64,000 nt of DNA from a virus (IMGVR_UViG_3300012007_000008:1-64000), one strand, 5' to 3'. Positions 8,076 to 60,059 are shown, counted from the stretch's first letter. Notes: generated from the sequence alone by a model not told the origin. A program made the numbers and translations.

Positions 8076-8210
8076 GAGCACGTCTTTTCAACTCGTAATT
8101 CTCTACTTTCTAAACGAAAATAAAGCGTTTAGTCTACTTAGTTTGTCTCTATTTTTAGAAGATATAACTATAGATCCTTTTTGTTCACCAGAAAGAAGGA
8201 GGTCGAGATA

Positions 8211-9944
8211 ATGCCGAACATAGGCCTAGATGAAGTAACAGTGCAACCAGAAGATTGGGAAAAGTTCAAAACCGACACCCTTTTGCATTATTTTGGAAAT
8301 GGAGGAGCCGAAATAGCCAGGGTTTCTGACAGTATTCTCCGGAGCATTCACTACCACCCGAACGGAAGCAAGGAACTCGACGAATTCTATTCTCTCGCCG
8401 GGGCATTGTTCGAGGGAATTCTGGATAGTTGGGATAGAAAACATAAATTTGAATCGTTCTTATATATTTGCCTGTCAAACAGATTTAAGACATATCTTAC
8501 GGAGTTAACGGCCCAGAAGAGAGGAGGGAGGCAGATTGATAGGTCGCTATATGAGGAGGTTGGGGATGGATTAGTTCTTCAAGATACTATAGGCGGAGAA
8601 ATGGATTTTGATTTTTTGAGTCCAGAGTTGACGGACTATATCGGGAAACTTTCTGCAACACAGAAAAAGATTTTTTATATGTTGTATGAAGGATATTCGG
8701 CGTTTGAAATCCAGAAAGAGTTGGGTATTTCAGCAAAGAAATATCAAGAACTAATCCGGAATGCCAAACAGTATAAGAAGATCAAGTCGATTGTCAACGT
8801 AACCAACAAAAAGGTCGATGTAAAAACTAACAACGAGGAAGGTAAAGAGTTTATGCAGACAACTGAGACATCTAAAAGTGCAATCAAAACCGCGGCTCGT
8901 ATGGCAGAAGATCTTAATGATGAGACTATCCGCGATGATAACCAGATTCAGCGTGATTTTGTCTGGACCAATGTCATGATGGGGAACCTTATCGTAACAA
9001 CGCTTCTTGGTTATCTGATTCCGCCTGTAGTTATAGCAGAACAGAAATTGGATAATGGCTCCATCAAGTGGCTTCTCGACGGAAAACAGCGCTTGACTAC
9101 ACTCTCGATGTATCTTGCAAACGCATTTAGGATCTCAAAGAAAGTTGAGCATCCGTTTATTAGTTATCAGACAGTCAAGACGGATGAGAACGGAAATAAG
9201 GTTTACGACGAGAATAGACTTCCGGTTTATGAGGAGAAAACTTTCGACGTGCGTAACAAGAGATTCGGAGATCTCCCAAGAGAATTGCAGAAGAGGATCG
9301 AAGATTACGGAATCCGTTACGATCTTTATCTTGGATGTACGGCAAGCGAGATCGAGAGTCACATTCGCAGGTATAACACGTCAAGATCTATGAATCACAG
9401 CCAGAGAGGACTTACCTTCCTCGGATTGGATCTCGGCCTTAATTTGCGTGGAATTCAGAGAAAGAGTTTCTTTGCCAAAACATATAAGGAAAAAGATTTC
9501 TCGAATGGCGCCGTCCAGAGAATCATCATGGAATCCATTATGCTTATTGGATATCAGGATGCGTGGAAGTCTTCACCAGAAAAAATCGGAGAATATCTGA
9601 GTAAGAATGCAGATGGAAGTGATTTTGTCGAGTTTGCGGAATACGTAGATCGTATTGATGATATTCTTGACGACAAAACAAGAGAAATGTTCACGACGAA
9701 AGACTCGTTCCTGTGGTTCAAAATCTTCTCAGATTTCTCAGATCTCGGATACCCGGATGAAATGTTCAATGATTTTCTCAAAGCGTTTGATTCTCTTAAG
9801 AACACCAATATTGATGGAGAGACATTTGAATCCTTAAATTCAAGGTCTACCAAGATGGCATCGGTGATCGAGAAAAAGATTTCATATATTGAGGAGTTGA
9901 TGTTGCGGTATTTGGATAGTCAGAATAAAGAAAAAGCTTCGTAA
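8211..9944 (+). CDS. fusion protein: sigma-70-like regions 2 and 4 (N-terminal) plus DUF262/ParB-like domain
   Basis: region-4 HTH LSATQKKIFYMLYEGYSAFEIQKELGIS; DUF262 hallmarks IQRDFVW and LLDGKQRLTTL; SD AAGGAGG before ATG 8211. Confidence 0.6.
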   Translation: MPNIGLDEVTVQPEDWEKFKTDTLLHYFGNGGAEIARVSDSILRSIHYHPNGSKELDEFYSLAGALFEGILDSWDRKHKFESFLYICLSNRFKTYLTELTAQKRGGRQIDRSLYEEVGDGLVLQDTIGGEMDFDFLSPELTDYIGKLSATQKKIFYMLYEGYSAFEIQKELGISAKKYQELIRNAKQYKKIKSIVNVTNKKVDVKTNNEEGKEFMQTTETSKSAIKTAARMAEDLNDETIRDDNQIQRDFVWTNVMMGNLIVTTLLGYLIPPVVIAEQKLDNGSIKWLLDGKQRLTTLSMYLANAFRISKKVEHPFISYQTVKTDENGNKVYDENRLPVYEEKTFDVRNKRFGDLPRELQKRIEDYGIRYDLYLGCTASEIESHIRRYNTSRSMNHSQRGLTFLGLDLGLNLRGIQRKSFFAKTYKEKDFSNGAVQRIIMESIMLIGYQDAWKSSPEKIGEYLSKNADGSDFVEFAEYVDRIDDILDDKTREMFTTKDSFLWFKIFSDFSDLGYPDEMFNDFLKAFDSLKNTNIDGETFESLNSRSTKMASVIEKKISYIEELMLRYLDSQNKEKAS

Positions 9945-21245: not shown

Positions 21246-21254
21246 GGTAGTTTA

Positions 21255-21821
21255 ATGTTAAAAGAATTTAGATACTCCGAAACATAGAAAAAATAGATCA
21301 TCAAGAGTATGACTATTCTCCATGACACGAGATAGAAGTGCAACGAGCATATACTTGATTATTTTGACAGGAAAGGAATTCCGCATAAAGAACGTGCGTT
21401 AGAGCAAGGCGATTATTCTTTTATGATTCCTAAAAACGAGAAACTATCTATCTTAAGAGACTTGATATTTGACAAGTAGATAGTTATAGAAAGGAAAAGA
21501 AACCTTGATGAAATCGCCGGGAATCTCACAAATAAAAAAGATAAAAAGACCGGAGAGATATTAGACCATCGAGACAGATTTGAAAAGGAACTAACCTTAG
21601 CTCCGCATAATAAAATACTTCTCATAGAGAATGCAGATTATGAAGACTTGTCAGAAGCCAGATATCGTAGCGAATACAATAATCAGGCTTTTATGGCAAG
21701 CCTTCATACGTTCTGGTGGAGATATAATCTGCCGATATTCTTTATGAAGAATGATAAATATTCTGGAGAATTTATTTATAAAACATTTGGATACTATTTT
21801 AAAACAGTAATTTTGAGGTAA
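21255..21821 (+). CDS. ERCC4/XPF-like nuclease, possible resolvase, with five in-frame TAG codons
   Basis: hand translation gives GDYSF...IVIERKRNLDEIAGNL (ERK motif); missed by the ORF track because of the TAGs. Confidence 0.55.
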
Positions 21822-25608: not shown

Positions 25609-28600
25609 ATGAGGGTAATCAAGAGAGACGGAAGAAAAGTTGAATTTCAAGAAGACAAGGTAAAAATAGCCGTCTTAAAAGCCTTCAAGCAAATAGACGG
25701 AGAAACAACAGAGTATGCCAGAGATAAAGCTGATGCCATAGCCAAATATATAAAAAGCATGGATAAGGATCTGAATGTTGAAGAAATCCAGGATATTGTA
25801 GAATCAAAGCTGATGGCTTGTAACCGTAAAGACGTCGCAAAGGCATATATTATATATAGAAACGACAGAAGCCGAGAGCGTGAGAAGAATAGCTCTTTGA
25901 TGAAAAAAGTTGGCGTAAAGATTAAGGCCGCTAATATTCAGAACCAGAATGCCAACGTTGATGAAAAGTCGTTTGGTGGAAGGATCGGAGAGGCCAGCGG
26001 GGAACTCCTTCGTCAGTATGCTATCGACAATCTTTTATCTGACCTTTCCCGGAATAATCATTTGAACAATGAAATCTATATTCATGACCTAGATCATTAC
26101 GCGGTTGGTGATCATAATTGTTTGTCGATTCCATTTGATAAGCTTTTAGCGGAGGGATTCAATACTAGACAGACAGACGTCCGTCCGGCTCAATCGGTAA
26201 ATACGGCTTTTCAGTTGGTTGCCGTGATCTTCCAGCTACAGTCTCTTCAGCAATTTGGCGGAGTATCTGCCACGCATATAGATCACACAATGGTGCCTTA
26301 TGTCAGGAAGAGCTTTTATAAGCATTATGTCACCGAATATTTGAAGCGCACAAAAGAGTTTCTTGATCTGGATCTGATGAATTATCTCTTTGATACGTAT
26401 GAAGATGAAATCGGGGTTGTCAGGAACAGATTCGACGATTGGGTCGAAGAACATAAAGACGAATTCACTGAGAAGACCGGACTTAGATTTGAGGATTTTA
26501 CTCTCGACAATAAAAATGGTCTTAATCAAGAGCTATTCCAAGCAGCTTTATTCGACACGATCAATGAAACATATCAGGCAGTTGAAGGAATGTATCACAA
26601 CCTAAAAATATTTGGGCGACTCAATAGTGATGTTGAGAACATAGCTGCCTAAACGGGGGAACTCTCACGGAGACAATCCCGTGCTAAATTTGCATCGTTA
26701 TAAAGCGGATACCATTTGAAATATTATAACGATACACTAAACGCCTAACGACTATCCACATGAAACGTGGAGTACACCCAAGCGGGTGGAAATGGCAGCC
26801 TCCTATTTTATAGGATGAAGATATAGTCTAATCTTTATGACAACATAAAGAAGTTCATAAGAGAACTGCATAGGAGTAGCGAACCTATGTGAATATTAAT
26901 GAAATACATTGCAAAGCAGATCAGGGAATCAATTGCCATTCACTTCTATTAATTACGGTACATGCATAACCCCGGAAGGGCGTATGGTAACAAAAGCAAT
27001 TTTAGATGTTTCAATTAAGGGTATTGGTGTGTTGCATAAAACGTCGATCTTCCCATGTGGAATATTCCAGTGTATGAAAGGTGTAAACCGTAAACCGGGT
27101 GATCCAAATTATGATCTGTTTAGGTTGGCGCTTAAATCAACGGCGCGACGTCTCTATCCAAATTATGCCAACGTAGACTGGTCTGGAAACGCCGGATACG
27201 ATCCGAATGATCCGAAAACTTATTTCTCAACGATGGGTAGGTGTAAGCTACAGCTCATCTAAAATCTTTTGAACCCCGCCCGGGGGTGTCGCAAAAGCGG
27301 CTAACGGTTAGGACTCATTGAGTTGAGACCGTGCTAAATAATCAAGAATGGTAAGTAACTAGGAGATGGTATTTTGGTTATTTACAAAATTACAAATATT
27401 ATAAATGGTAAAATTTATGTTGGTAAAACAACAAGATCTCTGAAAGATAGATGGAATCGACATATATACGACGCACTTTCGAATCGTCTTGATACACATT
27501 TTAGTAGAGCAATACGAAAATATGGCCCAGAAAACTTTTAGACTTAGATAATTGATTCTGCAAAATCAGATGAAGAGTTATCTAAAAAAGAAAAATACTG
27601 GATAAATTATTTTAACTCGTGTGAGAACGGATACAATGAAACGATAGGTGGGGACGGTGGAAATACATATATGTCGAAGACCACAGAAGAGATGGATAAA
27701 ATAAAACAGAAGATACGTTCTACGAAAATCGGAAAAGATAATCCAATGGCAAGACCAATCAAATTATTAAGCATGAAAACAGGCGAGGAACTTCATTTTG
27801 GGAGTGCAGCGTAGGTAAGAGATTATTTTGGTGAATCAAACCATAATTTTGTCACCAGAAGAGTAAAACGTTAGATTAAATATTTGTTTAAAGGCGAATG
27901 GAATATAGCATACGAAGAAGATGAATACCCTACGGATGTTAGGTTTGATAAATCAATAAGAAAAAGTTGCCACATCCTTGTATAGGATTTGTATACTGGA
28001 GAAGTCGGTGAATTTGTAAGTTATGCATCTGCGGAAAGACATTTTGGCGTTCGAAACAAAAAGTTTAGTGGAAAAGCTTACAAACACACGTGTAAAGAAT
28101 TTGTTGTTGAAAGTAGATATAAAATTACCATTCTTGATTAAAAGTGTATCGACTATCCCTGATGAATGTATGGGAGTAGGGCTGGAGATAGGCACCAGCG
28201 ATGTTTTAGGAAACGAAGCGTCTGAAAACCGAAGCGGAAGACTGCGGAGAAATCCTGCGAAAGCATAAATGAATTAACATTTAGTAGAAGATATAGTCAG
28301 TTCCTCTGGCGATAGAGGAGGGAAACGTGTAGAACTGTGAATGGGGCAGACATCAACGCCGAACCTGGAACAAACCCTCAAACGAAAGACGGGCGCGGTA
28401 ACATCTGTCCTGTGACAATTATTATGCCTACATTGGCCATGGAGGCGTCTGGAGAAGTAGGCGACAAGGACATCAATTCTTTCATGGAAATTCTCGACCA
28501 GAAAATCCATGAGGCAAAAGATATGCTCATTGAAAGGTATGAGTACATCTGTAGTCAGTCGCCGGATTCGGCTAAATTCATGTATGAGAATGGTACAATG

Positions 28601-29323
28601 CTTGGCTATAAACCAGAAGAAGGAATCCGTTCAGCTTTGAGGCACGGCACAATCGTAATAGGGCAGCTTGGCCTTGCTGAAACTCTTCAGATTTTGATTG
28701 GCTGTGACCATACTACAGATAAAGGTATGAAATTGGCAAAGGAGATCGAACAGCTTTTTAAAGATCGCTGTGCTCAGTTTAAGAAAGAATATCGCTTAAA
28801 CTTTGGTGTGTACTATACACCCGCTGAGAATCTTTGTTACACGGCCATGCAGAAATTCAGGGACCGGTACGGAATAATTGAGAATATTTCAGATAAAGAT
28901 TTCTTTACGAACTCGATACATGTTCCAGTTTGGGTTAACATGAATCCGTTTGAAAAGATCGATATTGAATCTCAACTGACGGGATATAGCAATGCGGGTT
29001 GTATTACATACACAGAGGTTGAGGGATCCGTTAAAAACAACATTGATGCTCTTGAAGAGATTGTGAACTATGCTATGGATCATGACATTCCGTATTTTGC
29101 TGTAAACGTGCCGAACGACACATGTATGGATTGTGGATACTGTGATGAAATCAATGATAAATGTCCAAAATGTGGTGGCACTAATATTCAGAGATTACGC
29201 AGAGTCACAGGCTATCTTACAGGAAATTACACTACAGCTTTCAATAAAGGCAAACAGCAAGAAGTGAATATGAGGGTGAAGCATTGGACATCAGATATGA
29301 AACTCCCTGATAACTGGGAATGA
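25609..29323 (+). CDS. nrdD: anaerobic ribonucleoside-triphosphate reductase NrdD, split gene: join(25609..26603,26902..27238,28328..29323)
   Basis: ATP-cone N-terminus; junctions restore HNL|NTLQSRSGNQLPFTSINYG and STMG|CRT...DGRGN; Gly-radical RVTGYL and CxxC..CxxC at C-terminus; exon lengths sum to 2328 nt in frame. Confidence 0.8.
26604..26901 (+). other. group I intron 1 in nrdD, no ORF
   Basis: 5' exon ends in U paired to G in P1 (CCU|AAA / UUUGGG); intron ends in G; R element AACGACTA (26747-54), S element AAGATATAGTC (26818-28). Confidence 0.6.
27239..28327 (+). other. group I intron 2 in nrdD, carrying a GIY-YIG HEG
   Basis: 5' exon ends ...GGU, intron ends G before TGT(Cys); R-like TCGACTA (28149-55), S AAGATATAGTC (28288-98). 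Confidence 0.6.
27374..28141 (+). CDS. GIY-YIG homing endonuclease, intron-encoded, five in-frame TAG codons
   Basis: SD AGGAGATGG, TTG start; MVIYKITNIINGKIYVGKTT...KYGPENF[TAG]T[TAG]IIDS...KYWINYF...GYNETIGG; NUMOD-like C-terminus. Confidence 0.65.
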
Positions 29324-45221: not shown

Positions 45222-45428
45222 ATGGGAATTTATAAATACTCTCCTGGTGACTATGTGTGGTTTACCGCATGGGATCCGAATGAACATGGGGATGTTAGGA
45301 AAATCGGAAGAGTTGTAGAAGCATATCCGGCGACTGAACGGCCGGGTATTCAGGATTTATACATTGCGTACGAAAGACTGGTTTATACTCGGCAGTCTGA
45401 CGAAGTTGAAAGTATAAGAAAGAAGTAA
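45222..45428 (+). CDS. hypothetical protein
   Basis: 68-aa ORF. Confidence 0.35.
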   Translation: MGIYKYSPGDYVWFTAWDPNEHGDVRKIGRVVEAYPATERPGIQDLYIAYERLVYTRQSDEVESIRKK

Positions 45429-45430
45429 AA

Positions 45431-46156
45431 ATGAAGATTAAAGTTTTGAACGAACAACCTTTGACGCGAGTGAAAAATGTGTATGGATGTACGAATTTCG
45501 GTGGGTTAGAAATCGTTGGGAAGAAAATGTATACGATTAAAACCAAATCAGACAATCAACTTTCCGTTATTTCTGTGTATCCAGATTACACAAAGCCTGA
45601 AAGAACAAATCATAAGTATGCCTGTTGCATGTGGCATGGCAATGACCTCGCATACAATAACGGCCTTCTGTATGTTGCCCCGTGTGACAAATTTGTTGAG
45701 GTAGTGAACACTGGAGATTGGTCGCATCAGAGACTTGATTGTAATATTTTCATTTCCGCAATCGCCCATGTTTCTGGAAATCAGTTTGTAGGGTTGTCGC
45801 AGAATTACGGTGACTCACTTGGGCTTGCGGTATTGGAACATCGTGGCTACCGGATGGAAGTGCTGAGTGAATGGAATTTGAGAAATCCAAAATCTAAAGA
45901 TGGCTATCTGGTTACTCAAGGGATTGGGTTTAAGAAGAATAACAACTCAATCTTTCTTGTTATTTCAAAAAATGATTTTCATAGAAATATTCTACTGAGA
46001 TGCAAGATCGGCGACCAAGAACCCGATTATTGTTTCAGATCTAAGAAATCAACTGGGCGTTACGAGTTTGAGGGAATTAGTTTTACGAAGTCGGGACAGA
46101 AAGTCATTGGTAGTAACTTGCCGAACGGACAGGACAAAATTTTTATTGCCGCATAA
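45431..46156 (+). CDS. hypothetical protein
   Basis: 241-aa ORF. Confidence 0.45.
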   Translation: MKIKVLNEQPLTRVKNVYGCTNFGGLEIVGKKMYTIKTKSDNQLSVISVYPDYTKPERTNHKYACCMWHGNDLAYNNGLLYVAPCDKFVEVVNTGDWSHQRLDCNIFISAIAHVSGNQFVGLSQNYGDSLGLAVLEHRGYRMEVLSEWNLRNPKSKDGYLVTQGIGFKKNNNSIFLVISKNDFHRNILLRCKIGDQEPDYCFRSKKSTGRYEFEGISFTKSGQKVIGSNLPNGQDKIFIAA

Positions 46157-46286
46157 TGAACGAATTTTTTGGACTTAAGTCATTGAGAAATTCTGAAGAG
46201 AATAAAGGAGGACATAATCTCTGCGATTGGGGAGACGGGCTGCTCCGATCTCCTTACTCGCCATTTGTAAAGACCGAGGTAAAAGA

Positions 46287-46823
46287 ATGTTAAAACCAGC
46301 GATATCGTACAAGGAAGAACTTGAAGATTTATTCTCCCAGGAAATATATACAGAGAACTACTTCCTCTACTCAGGATATGCATACTGTCACGAATTGCCG
46401 AAGATTGGGGCGGAAGATAACCATTTTCAGTGGGCGATTGTTAACAGCCAGGAAGAAGTGATTGGCTATATGGCATATCAGGTAGATCCTGGAAGTGATA
46501 CTGTGAAAAACTTTGGACTGTATTCGTTCGATCATAGTAACCCAACAATTGGGAGAGACCTGTTTACAAAAATGGAAGAACTGGTCGCCAGATATCGAAG
46601 AATTGAGTGGGGGATGATCGGCGGGAACCCGGTCAAGAAACACTACGACCGTTTTTGTAAGAAGCATGGTGGGAATTGTGTAAAACTGAATCAAGTGACA
46701 AGAGATGAAGCAGGAAATTACCGTGATGTATATATCTATGAGATTGTGAGGGATTTAGAATGTCAGATTACAAAGAACCCAGAATCGGTCAGCGTTGTTT
46801 CTTCGCATTTCGCGCAGGAATAA
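46287..46823 (+). CDS. possible GNAT-family acetyltransferase
   Basis: 178 aa; weak acyl-CoA-binding-like block RIEWGMIGGNP. Confidence 0.3.
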   Translation: MLKPAISYKEELEDLFSQEIYTENYFLYSGYAYCHELPKIGAEDNHFQWAIVNSQEEVIGYMAYQVDPGSDTVKNFGLYSFDHSNPTIGRDLFTKMEELVARYRRIEWGMIGGNPVKKHYDRFCKKHGGNCVKLNQVTRDEAGNYRDVYIYEIVRDLECQITKNPESVSVVSSHFAQE

Positions 46824-46933
46824 ATCAGTTTGGAAATATTATAGCCATTGAAGATGATGGAACTCGGATACAGATTCGCGGCGATGACGGAAGAATATAT
46901 GCCGGTTGGACTAAGGACGTGGTTCTACTGTGA
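46760..46933 (+). CDS. small ORF (57 aa) overlapping the end of the 46287 gene
   Basis: MSDYKEPRIGQR...; lies at the left border of the TnpB element. Confidence 0.2.
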   Translation: MSDYKEPRIGQRCFFAFRAGINQFGNIIAIEDDGTRIQIRGDDGRIYAGWTKDVVLL

Positions 46934-47031
46934 GTCTAATTTGTGGAAATACTGGCGCTCCAGTTGGTAAAAACTGTGTTTTGTCCACGCTACAGAAGAA
47001 AAATATTCAATATCCCTGGATAGGTGGTAAT

Positions 47032-48123
47032 ATGAATAAAGGTGTTAAATTTAGAGCGTACCCAAATAAGGATCAACAAAACTTAATAAATCAAACATTC
47101 GGATGTTGTAGATTGATTTATAATAAAGGTCTCGCGATGCGAAACGATGCTTTTGAGAACGGTCAAAAGGTTGGATATACGCAGACATCTTCAATGCTTA
47201 CCGATCTTAAGAAGCAAGATGAATATTCATTCTTGAGAGATGTCGATTCGATTGCTCTGCAACAGTCATTAAGGGATTTGGATCGTGGATTCAAGAATTT
47301 CTTCGAGAAACGGACGAAGCATCCGAGATTTAAGAGCAAACATAATAATAGACAGTCGTATAGGACAATTAACCAAAAGGATAATATACGTATTGTTGGA
47401 AAATATATCAAGTTACCAAAGATAGGATATGTGAAGATTAAACAGTCAATGGATGTTGGACATATCAATAACGTGACTATTGAGAAGACTCCCACTGACA
47501 AATATTATGTAGTTCTGAATGTCGATTTCGAACCAGAGTTTCGTCAGAATGATGGATGTATGATTGGTATAGATGTCGGTATAAAGGAATTCTATTCTGA
47601 CAGTAATGGGAATATTATTGAAAACCCAAAATACCTTGAGAAGTCCTCACGTAAACTCCGCAGGGAACAAAGAAGACTCTCTCGGAAGCAGAAAGGAAGT
47701 AGTAATAGGAATAAACAGCGGATCAGGGTTGCCAGAATGCATGAGAAGATTACAAATCAAAGAAATGATTTTTTACAGAAGCAGACAACTATGCTTGTGC
47801 GTGAAAACCAAACCATCTGCATAGAGGATCTGAACGTAAGAGGGATGCTTCGTAACCATAGGCTTGCGAAGTCAATATCAAGTGCATCTTGGTCGAAATT
47901 TTTTACAATATTGGAGTATAAAGCGATGTGGTACGGAAATGATATAATTAGAGTACCGACCATGTATCCAAGTAGTCAGACTTGTTCTTGTTGTGGATAT
48001 AAAAATCCATTAGTAAAGAATCTGGCAGTCAGAGAATGGGAGTGCCCAAGATGTCATACCATACATGGCAGAGATAAGAACGCTGCGATTAATATTTTGA
48101 ACAAAGGGCTGTCAGTAGCCTAA
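47032..48123 (+). CDS. tnpB: IS200/IS605-family TnpB (OrfB); no TnpA present
   Basis: RuvC-I IGIDVGIKEF, RuvC-II ICIEDLNV, zinc finger CSCCGY...CPRCH, RuvC-III RDKNAAINI. Confidence 0.8.
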   Translation: MNKGVKFRAYPNKDQQNLINQTFGCCRLIYNKGLAMRNDAFENGQKVGYTQTSSMLTDLKKQDEYSFLRDVDSIALQQSLRDLDRGFKNFFEKRTKHPRFKSKHNNRQSYRTINQKDNIRIVGKYIKLPKIGYVKIKQSMDVGHINNVTIEKTPTDKYYVVLNVDFEPEFRQNDGCMIGIDVGIKEFYSDSNGNIIENPKYLEKSSRKLRREQRRLSRKQKGSSNRNKQRIRVARMHEKITNQRNDFLQKQTTMLVRENQTICIEDLNVRGMLRNHRLAKSISSASWSKFFTILEYKAMWYGNDIIRVPTMYPSSQTCSCCGYKNPLVKNLAVREWECPRCHTIHGRDKNAAINILNKGLSVA

Positions 48124-48334
48124 GAAACTGATAAATACCGTAGGGCATACGGGAATATACGCTTGTGGAGATCGTGTAAGACTAAATCCTTGTGATGATG
48201 CAGTGGTCGTTGAAGCAAGAATCCCATGACTAAAGTTGTGTGGAGTGTCAACCTAATGGTGAATGGAAAAAGTCTGGAAGAACAGATTCCGTCTCATGGC
48301 AAGTGTGGCTTTCGGAGCAATATGATGCTGAGGA
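48124..48334 (+). ncRNA. putative omegaRNA/right-end region of the TnpB element
   Basis: ~210 nt non-coding directly 3' of tnpB; hairpin CCGTA-GGGCA-TACGG at 48141. Confidence 0.35.
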
Positions 48335-48349
48335 TTGGAGAGAAGAGGA

Positions 48350-48796
48350 ATGAAAATTTTATTCACTGATGTGGATGGTGTTCTAAACGATGAAGCAACG
48401 ACAGCCAAAAGTCCGTGCGGTTATACCGGAATCATGGATTCTAAGGTTAAGCTACTGAAAAAGATAATTGATGTAACTGGAGCAAAGATAGTTCTTAGTT
48501 CTGACTGGCGTTTGTGTGATGAGGACGACCCTGATTATAAGTACCTCCTAAATAAACTCCGGTATAAGGGTGGAATTGGTATCTATGATAAAACGCCGGA
48601 TCTCAGTTGGCAAAGACGTGGATTGGAAATTGAAACATGGTTGAAATGTCATCCTGAAGTCGAAGCATGGGTTGTGTTGGATGACATTGATTTTAGTGAT
48701 TTTAATGAAATAACGGATCATGTTGTGTTGACGGATGGATATTACGGGCTTCAGGAGGCCGATGTTGAGAAGGCGATTGAAATATTGAAAGGATGA
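48350..48796 (+). CDS. HAD-superfamily phosphatase
   Basis: motif I FTDVDGVLN; motif III/IV region VVLDDIDFSD. Confidence 0.55.
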   Translation: MKILFTDVDGVLNDEATTAKSPCGYTGIMDSKVKLLKKIIDVTGAKIVLSSDWRLCDEDDPDYKYLLNKLRYKGGIGIYDKTPDLSWQRRGLEIETWLKCHPEVEAWVVLDDIDFSDFNEITDHVVLTDGYYGLQEADVEKAIEILKG

Positions 48797-48805
48797 AGAA
48801 TAGTT

Positions 48806-49240
48806 ATGAATTATAAAAGATTAACTGACAACGCGAAACTGCCAACCCGTGCAGACGAAGGATCCGCTGGGTATGATCTGTACGGTAACAACACTTACAG
48901 AATTGAAATCCAACCACACAAAACCGTGAAGATCGGAACAGGGATCTGTATTGAAACGCCGCGTGGATGCATGGCCGCCATTTTTGCTCGTTCAGGGATT
49001 TCAACAAAAAGAGGATTACGCCCGGCAAATTGTGTAGGCGTGGTAGACCCATCTTATCGGGGAGAACTGATCGTGCCTCTTCACAACGACACTGACGAAC
49101 CTCAGTACGTAGAACCTGAAGAACGTATCGCTCAGCTTGTATTCCTGAGCTTCGGAGTTATTCGTGAGTGGAACGAAGTAGATGAACTCTCTGAGACAGA
49201 GCGCGGAACTGGTGGATTTGGCTCTTCGGGCACAACATAA
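48806..49240 (+). CDS. dut: dUTP pyrophosphatase
   Basis: GSAGYDL, RSG, GVVDPSYRGE trimeric dUTPase motifs. Confidence 0.85.
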   Translation: MNYKRLTDNAKLPTRADEGSAGYDLYGNNTYRIEIQPHKTVKIGTGICIETPRGCMAAIFARSGISTKRGLRPANCVGVVDPSYRGELIVPLHNDTDEPQYVEPEERIAQLVFLSFGVIREWNEVDELSETERGTGGFGSSGTT

Positions 49241-49250
49241 GGAGATAAGT

Positions 49251-49751
49251 ATGATAAGTTACGACGAATTCCGGGCGGCAATGCTCCGCTCGGATGATCC
49301 TGAGGATAAAGAACGGAATAAAGCACTGGTTGAGCGCTACCCCTTCCTTCTTCCGCGATACGAATGGTCTCAGGAACCTCTGGAAGGCTACGACTATGGG
49401 TTTACCAATTTTGATGATCTTCCGAGAGGCTGGATTAAGGCGTTCGGCATTCAGATGTGCGAGGAACTCCGAGATATTCTGATCGATGGCGATTACCTTG
49501 ACAATTACAGGATCCTTCAGTGGAAAGAAAAGTTCGGCCAACTCAGAATCTACTCAAACGGCATCCCCAAGAAGATTGCGGATCAATACTATGCCTGGGA
49601 GGCTAAGTACGAGAAACTTTCAGGCGAAACCTGTTACAGTTGCGGTAAGCCAGGCCATCTGATGAAAACCGGATGGATTCTTCCGTATTGTGAAGAGTGC
49701 TTCCGTGAGACACATCCTGGGCAGGATTATGAAAAGTGGAGGATTGAATGA
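49251..49751 (+). CDS. hypothetical protein with C-terminal Cys cluster
   Basis: 166 aa; CYSCGKPGH...CEEC. Confidence 0.45.
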   Translation: MISYDEFRAAMLRSDDPEDKERNKALVERYPFLLPRYEWSQEPLEGYDYGFTNFDDLPRGWIKAFGIQMCEELRDILIDGDYLDNYRILQWKEKFGQLRIYSNGIPKKIADQYYAWEAKYEKLSGETCYSCGKPGHLMKTGWILPYCEECFRETHPGQDYEKWRIE

Positions 49752-50320
49752 CAAAGGATCAATTTGATGAGTTTATGGCCGACATAGCTGCGCTGAAGGA
49801 AAAATATAACGTAAAGGAAAGCGATGTTTCGCGGGCATTTAGTCAAACCATTAGAAACTCTGCGCATATGGGAATAATACAGAAAGCAAAAGAGAACAAA
49901 AAATACGTCGGCAAATACTATGTCATGAGAGTAAAACCTCAGGGCGGCATGTTTCCTGAAATGAACCGTTACTACAAAGTTATCTCTTATCAGTCATCGA
50001 ATGAGTATCATGTTGAAACGCTTGCCTTTGACGAACACCCCACATACTTCTTCGATTATCACAGTTCTATGATTGGGGAGCCGGGCGATTATTTCCTGGG
50101 AAATTTCTCCTTTGAAGGTTTTAATGTTGAAGACATCTTCGTCCAGACACTGCTCATGTCGGCGAAAGAAATTTCCGAAGAAGAGTATTGGTCGGCGGCT
50201 GAAAAGTACCTCTCTGAACTCAGAGAAACACCTTGGTATGCCGATCATTATAGATGTGGAGGAAAACTTCCGACTGATCCCGGGTGGGTAAGTAAAGGGG
50301 TTAAGAAAGACGCAAACTGA
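49748..50320 (+). CDS. hypothetical protein
   Basis: 190-aa ORF. Confidence 0.45.
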   Translation: MTKDQFDEFMADIAALKEKYNVKESDVSRAFSQTIRNSAHMGIIQKAKENKKYVGKYYVMRVKPQGGMFPEMNRYYKVISYQSSNEYHVETLAFDEHPTYFFDYHSSMIGEPGDYFLGNFSFEGFNVEDIFVQTLLMSAKEISEEEYWSAAEKYLSELRETPWYADHYRCGGKLPTDPGWVSKGVKKDAN

Positions 50321-53589: not shown

Positions 53590-54696
53590 TTACCGCTTTC
53601 TCAGCATTTCCACTGAACTCTTCAGTTTCTTGATCGCATAATCCAAATCTTCCTGCGTAGTATCTCTGCCTAACGTCAGGCGCAGAGAGCCGTTTGCTTC
53701 TTCTTCACTCAGCCCTATCGCGGTAAGGACATGGCTTGGTTCTCCACTTCCGGTCTCACAGGCCGATCCTGAAGAGCAGTAGATGTCGTACATAGAGAGC
53801 AGTTCAACCAGTTCTTCTCCGCGGATCCCGTCAAAGACGAAGCTGGCGTTGTTTGGCAACCTGTATACAGGATCTCCGGTCAGCTTACTGCCAGGGATCT
53901 CGGTTAAGACATTCTTGATCAGGTGTGACCTTAGTTCGATCAACCGTGGGGATTCAGTATGGATGGCGGCACAGGATATCTCAGCCGCCTTAGCCATCGC
54001 AACGATCCCGAATACGTTCTCGGTTCCGGCGCGGAGTCCTCGTTCCTGACGACCGCCCTGAAGAAGAGGATGTAGGTCGGTATCCTTTCTGACATACAGG
54101 AAGCCGACGCCCTTAGGCCCGCCGAACTTATGAGCGGAGGCAGAGATAAAGTCTACCTTGATCTCATTTACGTTCAGGATCTGATGTCCATAATACTGCG
54201 TCGCGTCAGTATGGAATTTAACGCCAAAATCGCGGCATAGAGCGGCGATCTCCTTTATAGGTTCCACAGTACCTATTTCGTTGTTGGCCGCCATAACGGA
54301 CACGAGAGGCGTGTATACGTGGCTCTCAATCGTCCTCTTTACATCGTCAGGATCTACTAGACCAGTCTCACTGACGGGTAGCGAATATATCCCTACTTCA
54401 CACGCTGGCATAAGTATCGCGTGGTGTTCGATTGGCGTAGTAATCACGTTGTCGAATGACTGGATCACTGTGTTGTTCGCCTCAGTAGCCCCTGAAGTAA
54501 AGAATATCTCTTCAGGCTCAGCACCGAGAGTATCCGCGATTGTCTACCGCGCTTGTTCTATAGCCGCCCTGGCTTCAATCCCCGGCACATAAGCAGCGGA
54601 AGGATTGTGCCAGTGTTCATATAGATACGGCAGACCCGCCTCTATCGCTTCTGGATAAGGACGGGTAGTTGCCGCATTGTCTAAATATACGTTCAT
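53590..54696 (-). CDS. cysteine desulfurase (IscS/NifS/DndA-like, class V aminotransferase) with in-frame TAG at 54544-54546
   Basis: rebuilt N-terminus MNVYLDNAATTRPYPEAIEAG...EQAR[TAG]TIADTLGAEPEEIFFTSGATEANN; PLP region SASAHKFGGPKGVGFLYV. Confidence 0.75.
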
Positions 54697-54731
54697 TATC
54701 CTTTATTCCTTTCAAACAAACATCGGAGAGA

Positions 54732-56997: not shown

Positions 56998-58224
56998 TTA
57001 TTCTGTACAAGAAGCAGGTCTTGTGCCAAGATTGGTTAGATCGATCTCTTCTAGACATAGTTCGTCTTTAAGAGCGAGGTATTGGTCTTCATAGACCCAG
57101 ATGTCTCCGTAGGAATAGTGGGTTTTGGCTTCAACCGCATATTGGACTGAACCTCCATACTTATCAATAGCCACCTTTAAGTATGGTAGTTTTTCTATAA
57201 ATTTACCATCGTGAAAACGTAACACTGGGCGTAGTCTTTTGTTCTTCCACGGTTCAACATCTTTCCCATGTGTTTCTTCGTCATAGTAGAATAAGAATCC
57301 TTTCATATGATGGTATATGTTCTTACTATTACACGCGTGTTCAATACTTCTTGGTGACACATTTGTATATTCTGAAGCGGCGTCACTATTCTGAAATGTT
57401 TGAATTAACTTCCCGGACATATCGTAAACACAGACCTTTTTCCGATTGGGATTTTTCTTTGGACCAAATTTTCTATTGATAAGCTTTTGAACGGCTTCCT
57501 CACTGTAGTCCGGTTCGAAAAACCAGAAAAACCCATACGCAGATATGCTAGTGCCACAACAGCATTGTCTGATTTGTTCGTATTCTTTTGGCGTATAACC
57601 ATCGATTTTATGAAGGTCGTCATATATTTGTATTAGTGTGCCATCATAATCAACTTTATACACTTTAGGATATTTTTTAACAGTATTTCCTGGAAATCCT
57701 GTATATGGTGGCATCTTGTCAACTTTTTCAAAAGACCACTGAAAACCATGAGCTTGTTTCCGATTCTTACTAGCTGCTTCACCAATCTTTTTCCCTTTTA
57801 TATGAAGAGTTTCCGCCGCCTCACTAATTGTACCCCATTCTTTGACAAAATCTCCCTACCAAGTATACTGGAATACGGATTTACTCATAGGGTGTTCTAC
57901 TCCATATAATCCATTTCCTGTGTCTCCACCTTTTGCAATATTGTATGCGATATCTGGATTTCTTAGGTCAAATTTGGCAATTAAATAAATCTATATCATC
58001 TTGGCTTGTTCTTTCTCCAGATTTTCAATAAGAATAACATGATCAAAGTTATCCCAGCCGTATTTTTGAATTGCTTTCCAAAAGTGATGAGAACCTACGT
58101 ATTGTCTTCCATTTGAACTCCATCTTTGTTTTGTGTTCTTTGAAATTCCGACATAATATTTCCCGTTAATTTTATTTCTGTGATAGTAAACACACCACCT
58201 ATTTTCACTAATATAATGTTCCAT
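56998..58224 (-). CDS. free-standing GIY-YIG homing endonuclease with two in-frame TAG codons
   Basis: N-terminus WCVYYHRNKINGKYYVGISKNTKQRW...KYGWDNF; reads through TAG into the NUMOD-like C-terminal ORF (56998-57714); RBS region is the AATGAAAGGATTATATTATG motif. Confidence 0.6.
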
Positions 58225-58253
58225 AATATAATCCTTTCATTTGACCCGTATAA

Positions 58254-59393: not shown

Positions 59394-59549
59394 TCAGAGC
59401 CTTTCCCAATAACAGTTCTCGTCGTATTCTATCCCGAGATACTTCGAGAATAACTTCTTTATTTCTTCGTCCGTGATATCATCAGGGACATCTACGGTTA
59501 CTTCATTACGCCCAACGAACTGAGCGTCGATAATTAGTTTCAATCTCAT
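59394..59549 (-). CDS. small ORF (51 aa)
   Basis: SD GGAAGGGGAAACAG; below ORF-track threshold. Confidence 0.25.
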   Translation of the reverse strand: MRLKLIIDAQFVGRNEVTVDVPDDITDEEIKKLFSKYLGIEYDENCYWERL

Positions 59550-59748
59550 CTGTTTCCCCTTCCGGAAACCCTTATTATCGGCAGTTACAGTTTAATTACC
59601 TGACCAGTAGACAAACACCATTCATAAAAACAGATGATTCTCCTGATCAGGTTGATAACGGAACTACTAATATCCGGTATTCTTTCTGGACTTTTGATTT
59701 TTATCTCCGTCATATCCTTACCTCCCGAGCCACTCAGAACTTTCCCCA

Positions 59749-59991
59749 TCATACTTCCTCCATTGCTCTAACAATCGTCGCCCGGTATTCCTGAAGCAGA
59801 GAAATCAGGTTGTCCCTGATCGCCGAACCGATCCCGATGTTTACATTTCCGCAAGAAGCGCGGGTGTTCAGTGTGATGCTACTATACTGTTTGATGTTCT
59901 TCAGGGCTTCGTCTACCTTATTCAACTCATATTCGTAGCTTTGGTACTTCGCCGCCCGTTCTTTTACTTGTGTATATTCTTCCTTCGTCAT
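59749..59991 (-). CDS. hypothetical protein
   Basis: 80 aa, SD GGAGGTATCC. Confidence 0.4.
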   Translation of the reverse strand: MTKEEYTQVKERAAKYQSYEYELNKVDEALKNIKQYSSITLNTRASCGNVNIGIGSAIRDNLISLLQEYRATIVRAMEEV

Positions 59992-60059
59992 CGTGGATAC
60001 CTCCTTTCCTATACTTACTTCTCAAAACAGAAGAGAAGTAAACCCTCAATCTATCGAGT

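Follow-up and report, generated by a model that had tools for sequence, protein, structure and literature searches.

Can an RNA-guided nuclease that belongs to a transposon still act once the transposon has lost the means to move? The accepted role of TnpB is to restore its transposon after excision by the transposase TnpA, and a tnpB gene in viral DNA raises the question of what else it may do. The gene lies in a stretch of 64,000 nucleotides (nt) from a phage (IMGVR_UViG_3300012007_000008:1-64000; hereafter the window, from whose first letter all positions are counted), itself part of a 174,889-bp contig from a gut metagenome. A preliminary description had presented the locus as a TnpB-only element of the IS605 family with an omegaRNA-like region downstream, either a selfish passenger or a nuclease domesticated for conflict between phages. 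What we find is a decayed, IS608-like member of the IS200/IS605 family in which nuclease gene and guide RNA are kept, transposition is impossible, and sibling phages carry a target that the guide matches. We favour, with moderate confidence, the reading that this is a stranded but functional TnpB-omegaRNA system, able to cut sibling phages in co-infection and so to cause TnpA-independent homing or exclusion; its activity is presumed by analogy with related systems.

The tnpB gene itself is undamaged. One long open reading frame (ORF) on the + strand at the locus runs from 46930 to 48123, and the likely start within it is the ATG at 47032, with AGGTGG just upstream, the GTG at 46930 being disfavoured. 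The product matches the Pfam domains HTH_OrfB_IS605, OrfB_IS605 and Cas12f1-like_TNB, each above cutoff, and the NCBIfam models NF038281 (IS200_TnpB; 499.6 bits, cutoff 425) and NF040570 (366, cutoff 100). Its closest natural solved structure is ISDra2 TnpB, which aligns from end to end (E = 1e-87); in that alignment the RuvC triad D181/E265/D348 pairs with the catalytic residues D191/E278/D361 of ISDra2, and the zinc finger C318/C321/C338/C341 with C331/C334/C351/C354. Since the Pfam and NCBIfam matches, the triad and the zinc cysteines all align, we take the RNA-guided nuclease gene to be intact. The NF038281 score and the ISDra2 alignment agree with the preliminary description, which had assigned the gene to IS605-family TnpB with intact RuvC motifs and zinc finger.

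For the RNA partner and the limits of the element, about 100 loci with relatives of this TnpB were gathered from IMG/VR, GTDB genomes and metagenomes (L-numbers label loci). DNA homology with the tnpB relatives spans 47020-48251 and then ceases; in 47 distinct copies the conserved sequence terminates in ...GGAGTGTCAA (...GTGTCAA), with unrelated DNA beyond. The element-derived non-coding stretch after the tnpB stop is 128 nt long (48124-48251), and in the alignment of relatives this omegaRNA and right-end stretch is conserved above the level of the coding part. A consensus structure of 26 pairs, which has a long-range stem plus a covarying terminal hairpin, was tested on 48 aligned sequences, with controls in which partners were slid by 1-3 columns and with 500 shuffles. 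We found 96.9% of cells paired, compared to 32-46% in the slid controls, and changes on both sides in 11 pairs, compared to 1-5; none of the 500 shuffles reached the observed pairing values. Rfam, searched at gathering and permissive thresholds, matched no omegaRNA family (the sole regional match was a chance one to ALIL, E = 2.5), and the energy of 48030-48251 in single-sequence folding was not unusual (z = 0.13), so that what speaks for an omegaRNA is its position and sharp boundary, together with conservation and covariation. Taken together, these argue that 48107-48251 is a genuine omegaRNA scaffold and right end of an IS200/IS605-type element, whose terminal hairpin would double as the TnpA-binding hairpin and as the final omegaRNA stem. 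An estimate of ~210 nt of structured non-coding sequence in the preliminary description must accordingly be divided: 128 nt are omegaRNA and right end, and the other ~83 nt (~40%) are the stump of a phage gene. Its suggestion that scaffold and guide be predicted could be followed, the scaffold by covariation and the guide as CCTAATGGTGAATGGAAAAA, folding energy not being distinctive.

The left side of the element looks quite different from that of its relatives. Clostridium vitabionis carries four copies (L012, L013, L014, L016) that are 97-98% identical, and their shared 1.75 kb sets the limits of the intact element: TTAT in front, then the left-end hairpin, tnpA, tnpB, the omegaRNA with the right-end hairpin, and TCAA as the last bases. 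The left-end hairpin of these copies is CCCACGGTTTCAACCGTG, with AAAA in front, and the tnpA of full-length relatives encodes a Y1_Tnp protein of 133-139 amino acids (aa). TTAT stands immediately 5′ of the left end at ~35 independent insertions.

In the window, tblastn found no tnpA gene beyond a remnant of 45 nt, in which 14 of 15 residues are identical to the full-length C. vitabionis TnpA (E = 4e-6) and whose DNA can be aligned to the tnpA of L112 and L012. The absence of TnpA had been stated correctly for the gene, the remnant having been overlooked. It is bounded by deletion junctions at 46978/46979 and ~47019/47020, both with a microhomology of only 2-4 nt, and is fused straight onto the conserved ATAGGTGG that precedes tnpB. 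The left junction reads GGTAAAAACTGTGTTTTGTCCACGCTACAG. Phage DNA abuts tnpA codon 26 directly, and the window has kept neither the TTAT of the insertion site nor the target gene's 5′ portion. We infer that one deletion removed ~680 bp of phage DNA together with TTAT, the left end and tnpA codons 1-25, and that another removed tnpA codons 41-139. What survives at 46976-48251 is a 15-codon tnpA stump, tnpB with its ribosome-binding site, and the full omegaRNA scaffold and right end. The copy lacks two features that define a mobile element, tnpA and the left end, and because neither is there it can neither be excised nor transpose, even with TnpA supplied in trans.

This bears directly on the preliminary view of a complete TnpB-only IS605-family element, which would have both subterminal hairpins and could be mobilised by TnpA in trans. 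Such derivatives with both ends do exist among the close relatives (L001, L116/L117). However, BLAST with several left-end probes revealed no left end and no cognate hairpin anywhere in the window, phage homology leads straight into the tnpA remnant, and TTAT and part of the target gene are missing; the missing left end refutes the complete-element reading, to which we give hardly any credence, and leaves the copy immobile. Of the two ends, the right one has its subterminal hairpin and the left one, whose lack the preliminary description had itself named as counting against its reading, is missing. Two mini-hairpins upstream of tnpB, considered as IS605 left-end structures, both exist, but neither is an IS605 end. 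The ACTGG-CGCT-CCAGT hairpin is phage DNA, as it is also found in L108, which has no insertion sequence (IS), and the AAAAC-TGT-GTTTT hairpin arose by chance where phage DNA meets the tnpA remnant; neither of them is cognate to the hairpin at the right end. Perfect 5-bp stems with loops of 3-4 nt number 152 across the window.

The right side of the insertion is precise and leads to the target. The right junction reads GGAGTGTCAACCTAATGGTGAATGG, and in L106, L107 and L108-L111 homology to the window sets in at precisely 48252, the base that follows TCAA. In these phages, the point that matches 48252 is directly preceded by ...TGGCATTAT and lies inside an ORF of 111 aa, between ...WHEWHY and PNGEWKK.... 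In L108, ~680 bp separate the points that match 46978 and 48252, a stretch that holds a 133-aa ORF as well as the first 234 bp of the 111-aa ORF. To judge from the right half and the relatives, the element inserted 3′ of TTAT in the 111-aa gene, probably without target duplication. The empty site that the preliminary description had proposed to look for in related phages is therefore present in L106-L111, as TTAT followed by guide-matching sequence. Phage scans contributed little to this: in IMG/VR, the HAD protein encoded to the right and a 241-aa protein found nothing, and the 178-aa protein encoded to the left found two non-syntenic loci (L029, L030), uninformative for the empty site. Close homologues of the HAD-family protein were found in other metagenomic phage contigs.

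The same junctions speak to whether the locus could be a metagenome assembly chimera, a phage contig joined to an IS copy. Copies of the IS recur in many genomes from the same habitats, and such repeats classically give rise to misjoins, but the right junction falls exactly at the canonical right end and beside the correct half of the target gene, the other half of which has TTAT in the relatives. The 2-4 nt of microhomology at the left junctions are far under the 127-mer suggested by the contig name (k127_...), and the configuration is present on two contigs. We assign this explanation next to no probability.

TTAT is both the insertion target motif and the sequence 5′ of the guide match in L106-L111, and it is the predicted transposon-associated motif (TAM) of the family, which the protein would recognize. 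The empty site of L107 is TTAT followed by CCTAATGGTGAATGGAAAAA, a match to 20 of 20 guide positions, in a right flank that is 98% identical to the window. L106 has 1 mismatch to the guide, at position 18. L108-L111 read TTAT followed by CCCAATGGTGAATGGGAAAA and have 2 mismatches, of which that at position 3 is synonymous (CCT to CCC) and that at position 16 changes K to E (e.g. L108 8231-8254); these variants might be escape alleles or plain divergence, the sequences being too few to tell. Because a matching, TAM-flanked target is present in a sibling phage, an intact nuclease would have a substrate. Of the two roles first proposed for the gene, that in phage-phage conflict has thereby gained a TAM-flanked target in siblings, its actual use being presumed.

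No second copy of the guide-matching sequence occurs elsewhere in the 64-kb window, and an exact scan of IMG/VR with the guide gave 0 matches. These results, with those on the protein, can be set against the idea of a domesticated, nuclease-independent regulator, a TldR-like RNA-guided repressor, or of a weapon against the host or an unrelated target. Some phages are known to encode TnpB derivatives that serve as RNA-guided transcription factors (PMC10705468, PMC13418256). Unlike in TldR, however, the catalytic triad and zinc finger are intact here, for which reason we reject a dead nuclease, and the guide is the flank of the insertion site, matching nothing else in the window and nothing in IMG/VR. 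Both variants of this idea seem to us highly improbable.

How would the stranded system work? ISDra2 TnpB and related TnpBs process their own transcript to omegaRNA and cut TAM-flanked matches (PMC8612924, PMC10278001). By analogy, tnpB would be translated, and the 3′ end of its transcript would be processed to an omegaRNA that TnpB binds, the flank supplying a guide of ~16-20 nt (CCTAATGGTGAATGG...). DNA in which TTAT precedes a guide match would be cut by this complex; sibling phages have such DNA in their uninterrupted 111-aa gene. The phage's own locus would be spared because TCAA, not TTAT, precedes its guide-matching DNA, so that the TAM is absent. In a co-infected cell, the cut sibling would be repaired from the tnpB-bearing genome or its yield would be lowered; the homology arms shared with siblings are 79-98% identical. 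Repair would carry both the cassette and the linked deletion into the sibling, a spread that resembles that of a homing endonuclease and does not need TnpA. Spread into homologous replicons that is driven by TnpB and independent of TnpA is termed 'non-restorative homing' in a 2026 review, having been shown in a plasmid experiment and for phages only proposed (PMC13565253). A bolder version of our reading would take the system for a working device of RNA-guided homing or exclusion that needs no transposase and that drives the cassette and the 680-bp deletion into siblings within a lineage of TAG-recoded gut phages, with the synonymous and seed-position variants of L108-L111 (TTAT followed by CCCAATGG...GGGAAAA) as escape alleles. 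We put this version forward tentatively and consider it doubtful. If true, the locus would show 'non-restorative transposon homing' from phage to phage in nature, and it could plausibly stand midway from selfish TnpB to phage-owned RNA-guided weapons.

Whether the copy is kept in working order can be approached through its nearest relative, L116/L117, which has TTAT, the left end, a different tnpA deletion, tnpB and the right end. Its neighbours, in a different phage context, are a ClpP gene on one side and, on the other, a 68-aa ORF adjoining a YonJ-like gene, and its tnpA deletion and that of the window copy are independent. L116 is 96.8% identical in nt to the window over 47020-48251. Among the 40 differences, 35 are in tnpB and none is a frameshift or stop (dN/dS 0.106, a value that covers both lineages since the L116 split and does not isolate the period after immobilisation). 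All 4 differences downstream lie inside the 21-nt right-end hairpin (binomial P = 0.005), the other 107 nt of the scaffold being identical to L116. Two changes in the hairpin stem turn C-G pairs into U.G and G.U; they keep the RNA pairing and would weaken the DNA hairpin for TnpA, a pattern, in four substitutions, that fits relaxed selection on transposition with RNA function retained. Among other relatives, whose diverged left ends the probes used do not score reliably, the right-end hairpin is truncated in L072 and has wobble pairs in L045 and L004.

The main rival to a functional system is an inert relic, recently stranded, with too little time to decay and without effect on the phage or its competitors. 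It would account for the exact configuration being found in one genome only, and the four clustered hairpin substitutions could mark the onset of decay. Additionally, the slot at 46823-48350, which the 178-aa and HAD genes flank, is hypervariable among related phages, holding nothing in L103, an ORF of 135-140 aa in L119-L122, a 166-aa ORF and the 111-aa ORF in L107, and a 133-aa ORF and the 111-aa ORF in L108, and such an accessory slot could tolerate junk. Gene and RNA are nevertheless without defect outside the terminal hairpin, the 35 tnpB differences from L116 brought no frameshift or stop, both stem substitutions keep the RNA pairing, and the TAM-flanked target circulates in a sibling with a flank 98% identical. 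We regard an inert relic as less likely than a functional system; if the copy is inactive, the locus is an ordinary decaying IS.

Several points weigh against the functional system that we favour. Guide and target match as an automatic result of the way in which the element inserted, and the match thus cannot be counted as a sign of selection for targeting. Expression of TnpB and cleavage in this phage are both carried over by analogy; promoter and terminator scans at the locus gave background levels, promoter scans being uninformative. The exact junction occurs in one genome (2 contigs), so spread or persistence of the stranded allele is not evidenced, and most close relatives carry other slot content and no target (L103, L119-L122). 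The limit on dN/dS given above applies here as well, and the terminal omegaRNA stem is weakened by its two G.U pairs.

Full copies with tnpA and tnpB, of 83% nt identity, occupy other sites in related phages (L112-L114, L118), that of L112 being inserted into a homologue of the window's 178-aa gene. The element has therefore moved within this phage group. Megablast of 45400-49800 against INPHARED phages gave no match, and a plasmid collection held only distant tnpB matches (66-68% identity). Some observations on relatives stand by themselves. L076 has at 395-511 a second omegaRNA and right end, finishing ...GGAGCGTCAA, without tnpB coding upstream and ~3 kb from a complete tnpB; it may represent an omegaRNA that stands alone or else an element that was truncated. 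L108 carries at 678-2115, ~6 kb upstream of its empty site, a different tnpB-like gene in two overlapping ORFs (391 and 100 aa), which may be frameshifted or read through a recoded stop. Hairpins of the sequence CCCCTAGCTTTAGCTATGGGG occur in some relatives (L007 at ~2930-2960, and the right ends of L007, L015 and L076), and we take them to be almost identical to the hairpin of Helicobacter pylori IS608. This presumed likeness suggests that the TnpA-binding hairpin is conserved across very distant hosts.

The phage that harbours the element encodes DNA polymerase III alpha, DnaB, NrdD, dUTPase, RNA ligase and an integrase. TAG is the stop of only 4 of the 71 long ORFs on the + strand, and Pfam domains span in-frame TAGs in four genes (Table 1). 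We conclude from both that the phage reads TAG as sense, as the preliminary description had it; no suppressor tRNA was found in the window (0 tRNAs). That description also took the TAG-free tnpB to show that a gene compatible with the standard code can persist in such a genome, which turns out to be uninformative: all tnpB relatives, in standard-code bacteria and in phages, are without in-frame TAG and end in TAA or TGA, so the lack of TAG in this copy says nothing special.

Other features of the phage were noted in passing. Its nrdD gene is split in three (25609-29323, + strand), with exon 1 at 25609-~26593, exon 2 at ~26909-27262 and exon 3 at 28337-29323. A group I intron occupies 26594-26850 (Rfam, 70 bits); the second intervening stretch is unmatched in Rfam and carries the GIY-YIG ORF at 27359-28141, which has five in-frame TAGs. 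The − strand at 59546-60025 is 75-90% homologous to + strand genes that L108-L110 and L106 carry immediately after the HAD gene; its position ~11 kb away and its inversion indicate a rearrangement between these phages. In a 587-aa protein encoded at 8181-9944 (+ strand), a sigma-70 region 4-like helix-turn-helix (weak, below cutoff) is combined with a nuclease domain, GmrSD_N (DUF262-type), which is unusual in a phage gene.

Table 1. Positions of the element, its flanks and the recoded genes in the window.
Feature	Position	Strand	Remarks
ERCC4 nuclease	21246-21821	+	in-frame TAG within Pfam domain
GIY-YIG endonuclease	27359-28141	+	in-frame TAG within Pfam domain
Left flank, phage DNA	46265-46978	+	91% identical over 714 nt to IS-free L108-L111; homology ends at 46978
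178-aa phage gene in left flank	46287-46823	+	
57-aa ORF in left flank	46760-46933	+	
ACTGG-CGCT-CCAGT hairpin	46951-46964	+	intergenic phage DNA; 91% conserved in IS-free relatives, including L108
AAAAC-TGT-GTTTT hairpin	46970-46982	+	straddles junction of phage DNA and tnpA remnant
tnpA remnant, VFCPRYRRKIFNIPG	46976-47020	+	Y1 transposase codons 26-40, 45 nt; tblastn
tnpB ribosome-binding region, ATAGGTGG	47021-47031	+	3 nt to ATG; homology to all relatives resumes here
tnpB	47032-48123	+	363 aa, TAA stop (48121-48123), intact, zero in-frame TAG
Predicted omegaRNA scaffold, minimum extent	48107-48251	+	last 17 nt of tnpB through right-end boundary; covariation
Right-end subterminal imperfect palindrome, CCCATGACTAAAGTTGTGTGG	48223-48243	+	covarying; GAAT 5′ of foot
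Right cleavage site TCAA	48248-48251	+	final bases of the element; same right cleavage site as IS608 (PMC3201880)
Guide-encoding flank, CCTAATGGTGAATGGAAAAA	48252-48271	+	drawn as 20 nt; begins at first base past right end
3′ fragment of disrupted 111-aa phage ORF	48252-48353	+	33 codons and stop; ORF intact in L106-L111
HAD_SAK_2 family gene, 148 aa	48350-48796	+	right homology arm; common to empty-site relatives
Aminotran_5 (class-V aminotransferase)	53590-54702	-	in-frame TAG within Pfam domain
GIY-YIG + NUMOD1	56998-58236	-	in-frame TAG within Pfam domain

Altogether, an IS608-like element is actively moving among large TAG-recoded phages of gut Firmicutes, with full, tnpB-only and stranded copies in related genomes. 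The locus in the window offers a natural test case, since nuclease and guide RNA are intact, transposition is impossible, and siblings carry the TAM-flanked target with a perfect 20-nt match or, in others, two mismatches. It bears on how phages acquire RNA-guided nucleases as their own.

Among characterized systems, the nearest is the TnpB-omegaRNA of ISDra2 from Deinococcus radiodurans (PDB 8BF8, 8EXA, 8H1J), of the same family and domain order, with residues 2-360 here aligned to 4-373. In both, the omegaRNA overlaps the 3′ end of tnpB, stops at the right end and takes its guide from the flank, and tnpA lies upstream of tnpB, which here holds for the full-length relatives. The TAM is TTAT here and reportedly TTGAT in ISDra2. 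The window TnpB further differs in sitting in a TAG-recoded phage, in a copy without tnpA and left end, and in being known from its sequence.

The end architecture follows that of IS608 from H. pylori. There, 19 nt separate the hairpin foot from the left cleavage and target site TTAC, which the 4-nt guide AAAG on the 5′ side of that foot reads; TCAA serves as the right cleavage site, and insertion occurs 3′ of the tetranucleotide without duplication (PMC3201880). In the family of the window element, likewise, the left tetranucleotide precedes the left hairpin foot by ~19-20 nt, four guide nt stand 5′ of this foot (AAAA with TTAT, where IS608 has AAAG with TTAC), TCAA lies a few nt 3′ of the right hairpin and is paired with GAAT 5′ of it, and the mode of insertion is the same. 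It differs from IS608 in the target, TTAT and not TTAC, and in the distance from right hairpin to cleavage, 8 nt as against 10 nt, and the window copy keeps the right half only of this architecture.

The proposed behaviour resembles that of the free-standing homing endonucleases of the SegB/SegF type in phage T4 ('intronless homing', marker exclusion), where a co-infecting relative without the nuclease gene has its allele cut and the gene with its flanking markers is copied in by recombinational repair (PMC13565253); here both steps are presumed. The window phage likewise bears GIY-YIG endonuclease genes and a group I intron, a parallel to homing endonucleases. In contrast to the T4 enzymes, recognition would here be by RNA guide and TAM, not by protein, and self would be told from non-self by the insertion, which destroys the junction of TAM and target. 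Phage-borne genes of the tnpB family are already in the literature, in cyanophage A-1(L) and as TldR in temperate phages. The A-1(L) copy is identical to IS copies of its host and its target is undefined, and TldRs are nuclease-dead repressors, whereas the window encodes an intact nuclease, for which siblings have been identified that carry the natural target allele. What is new here is this particular natural configuration together with its identified target alleles.

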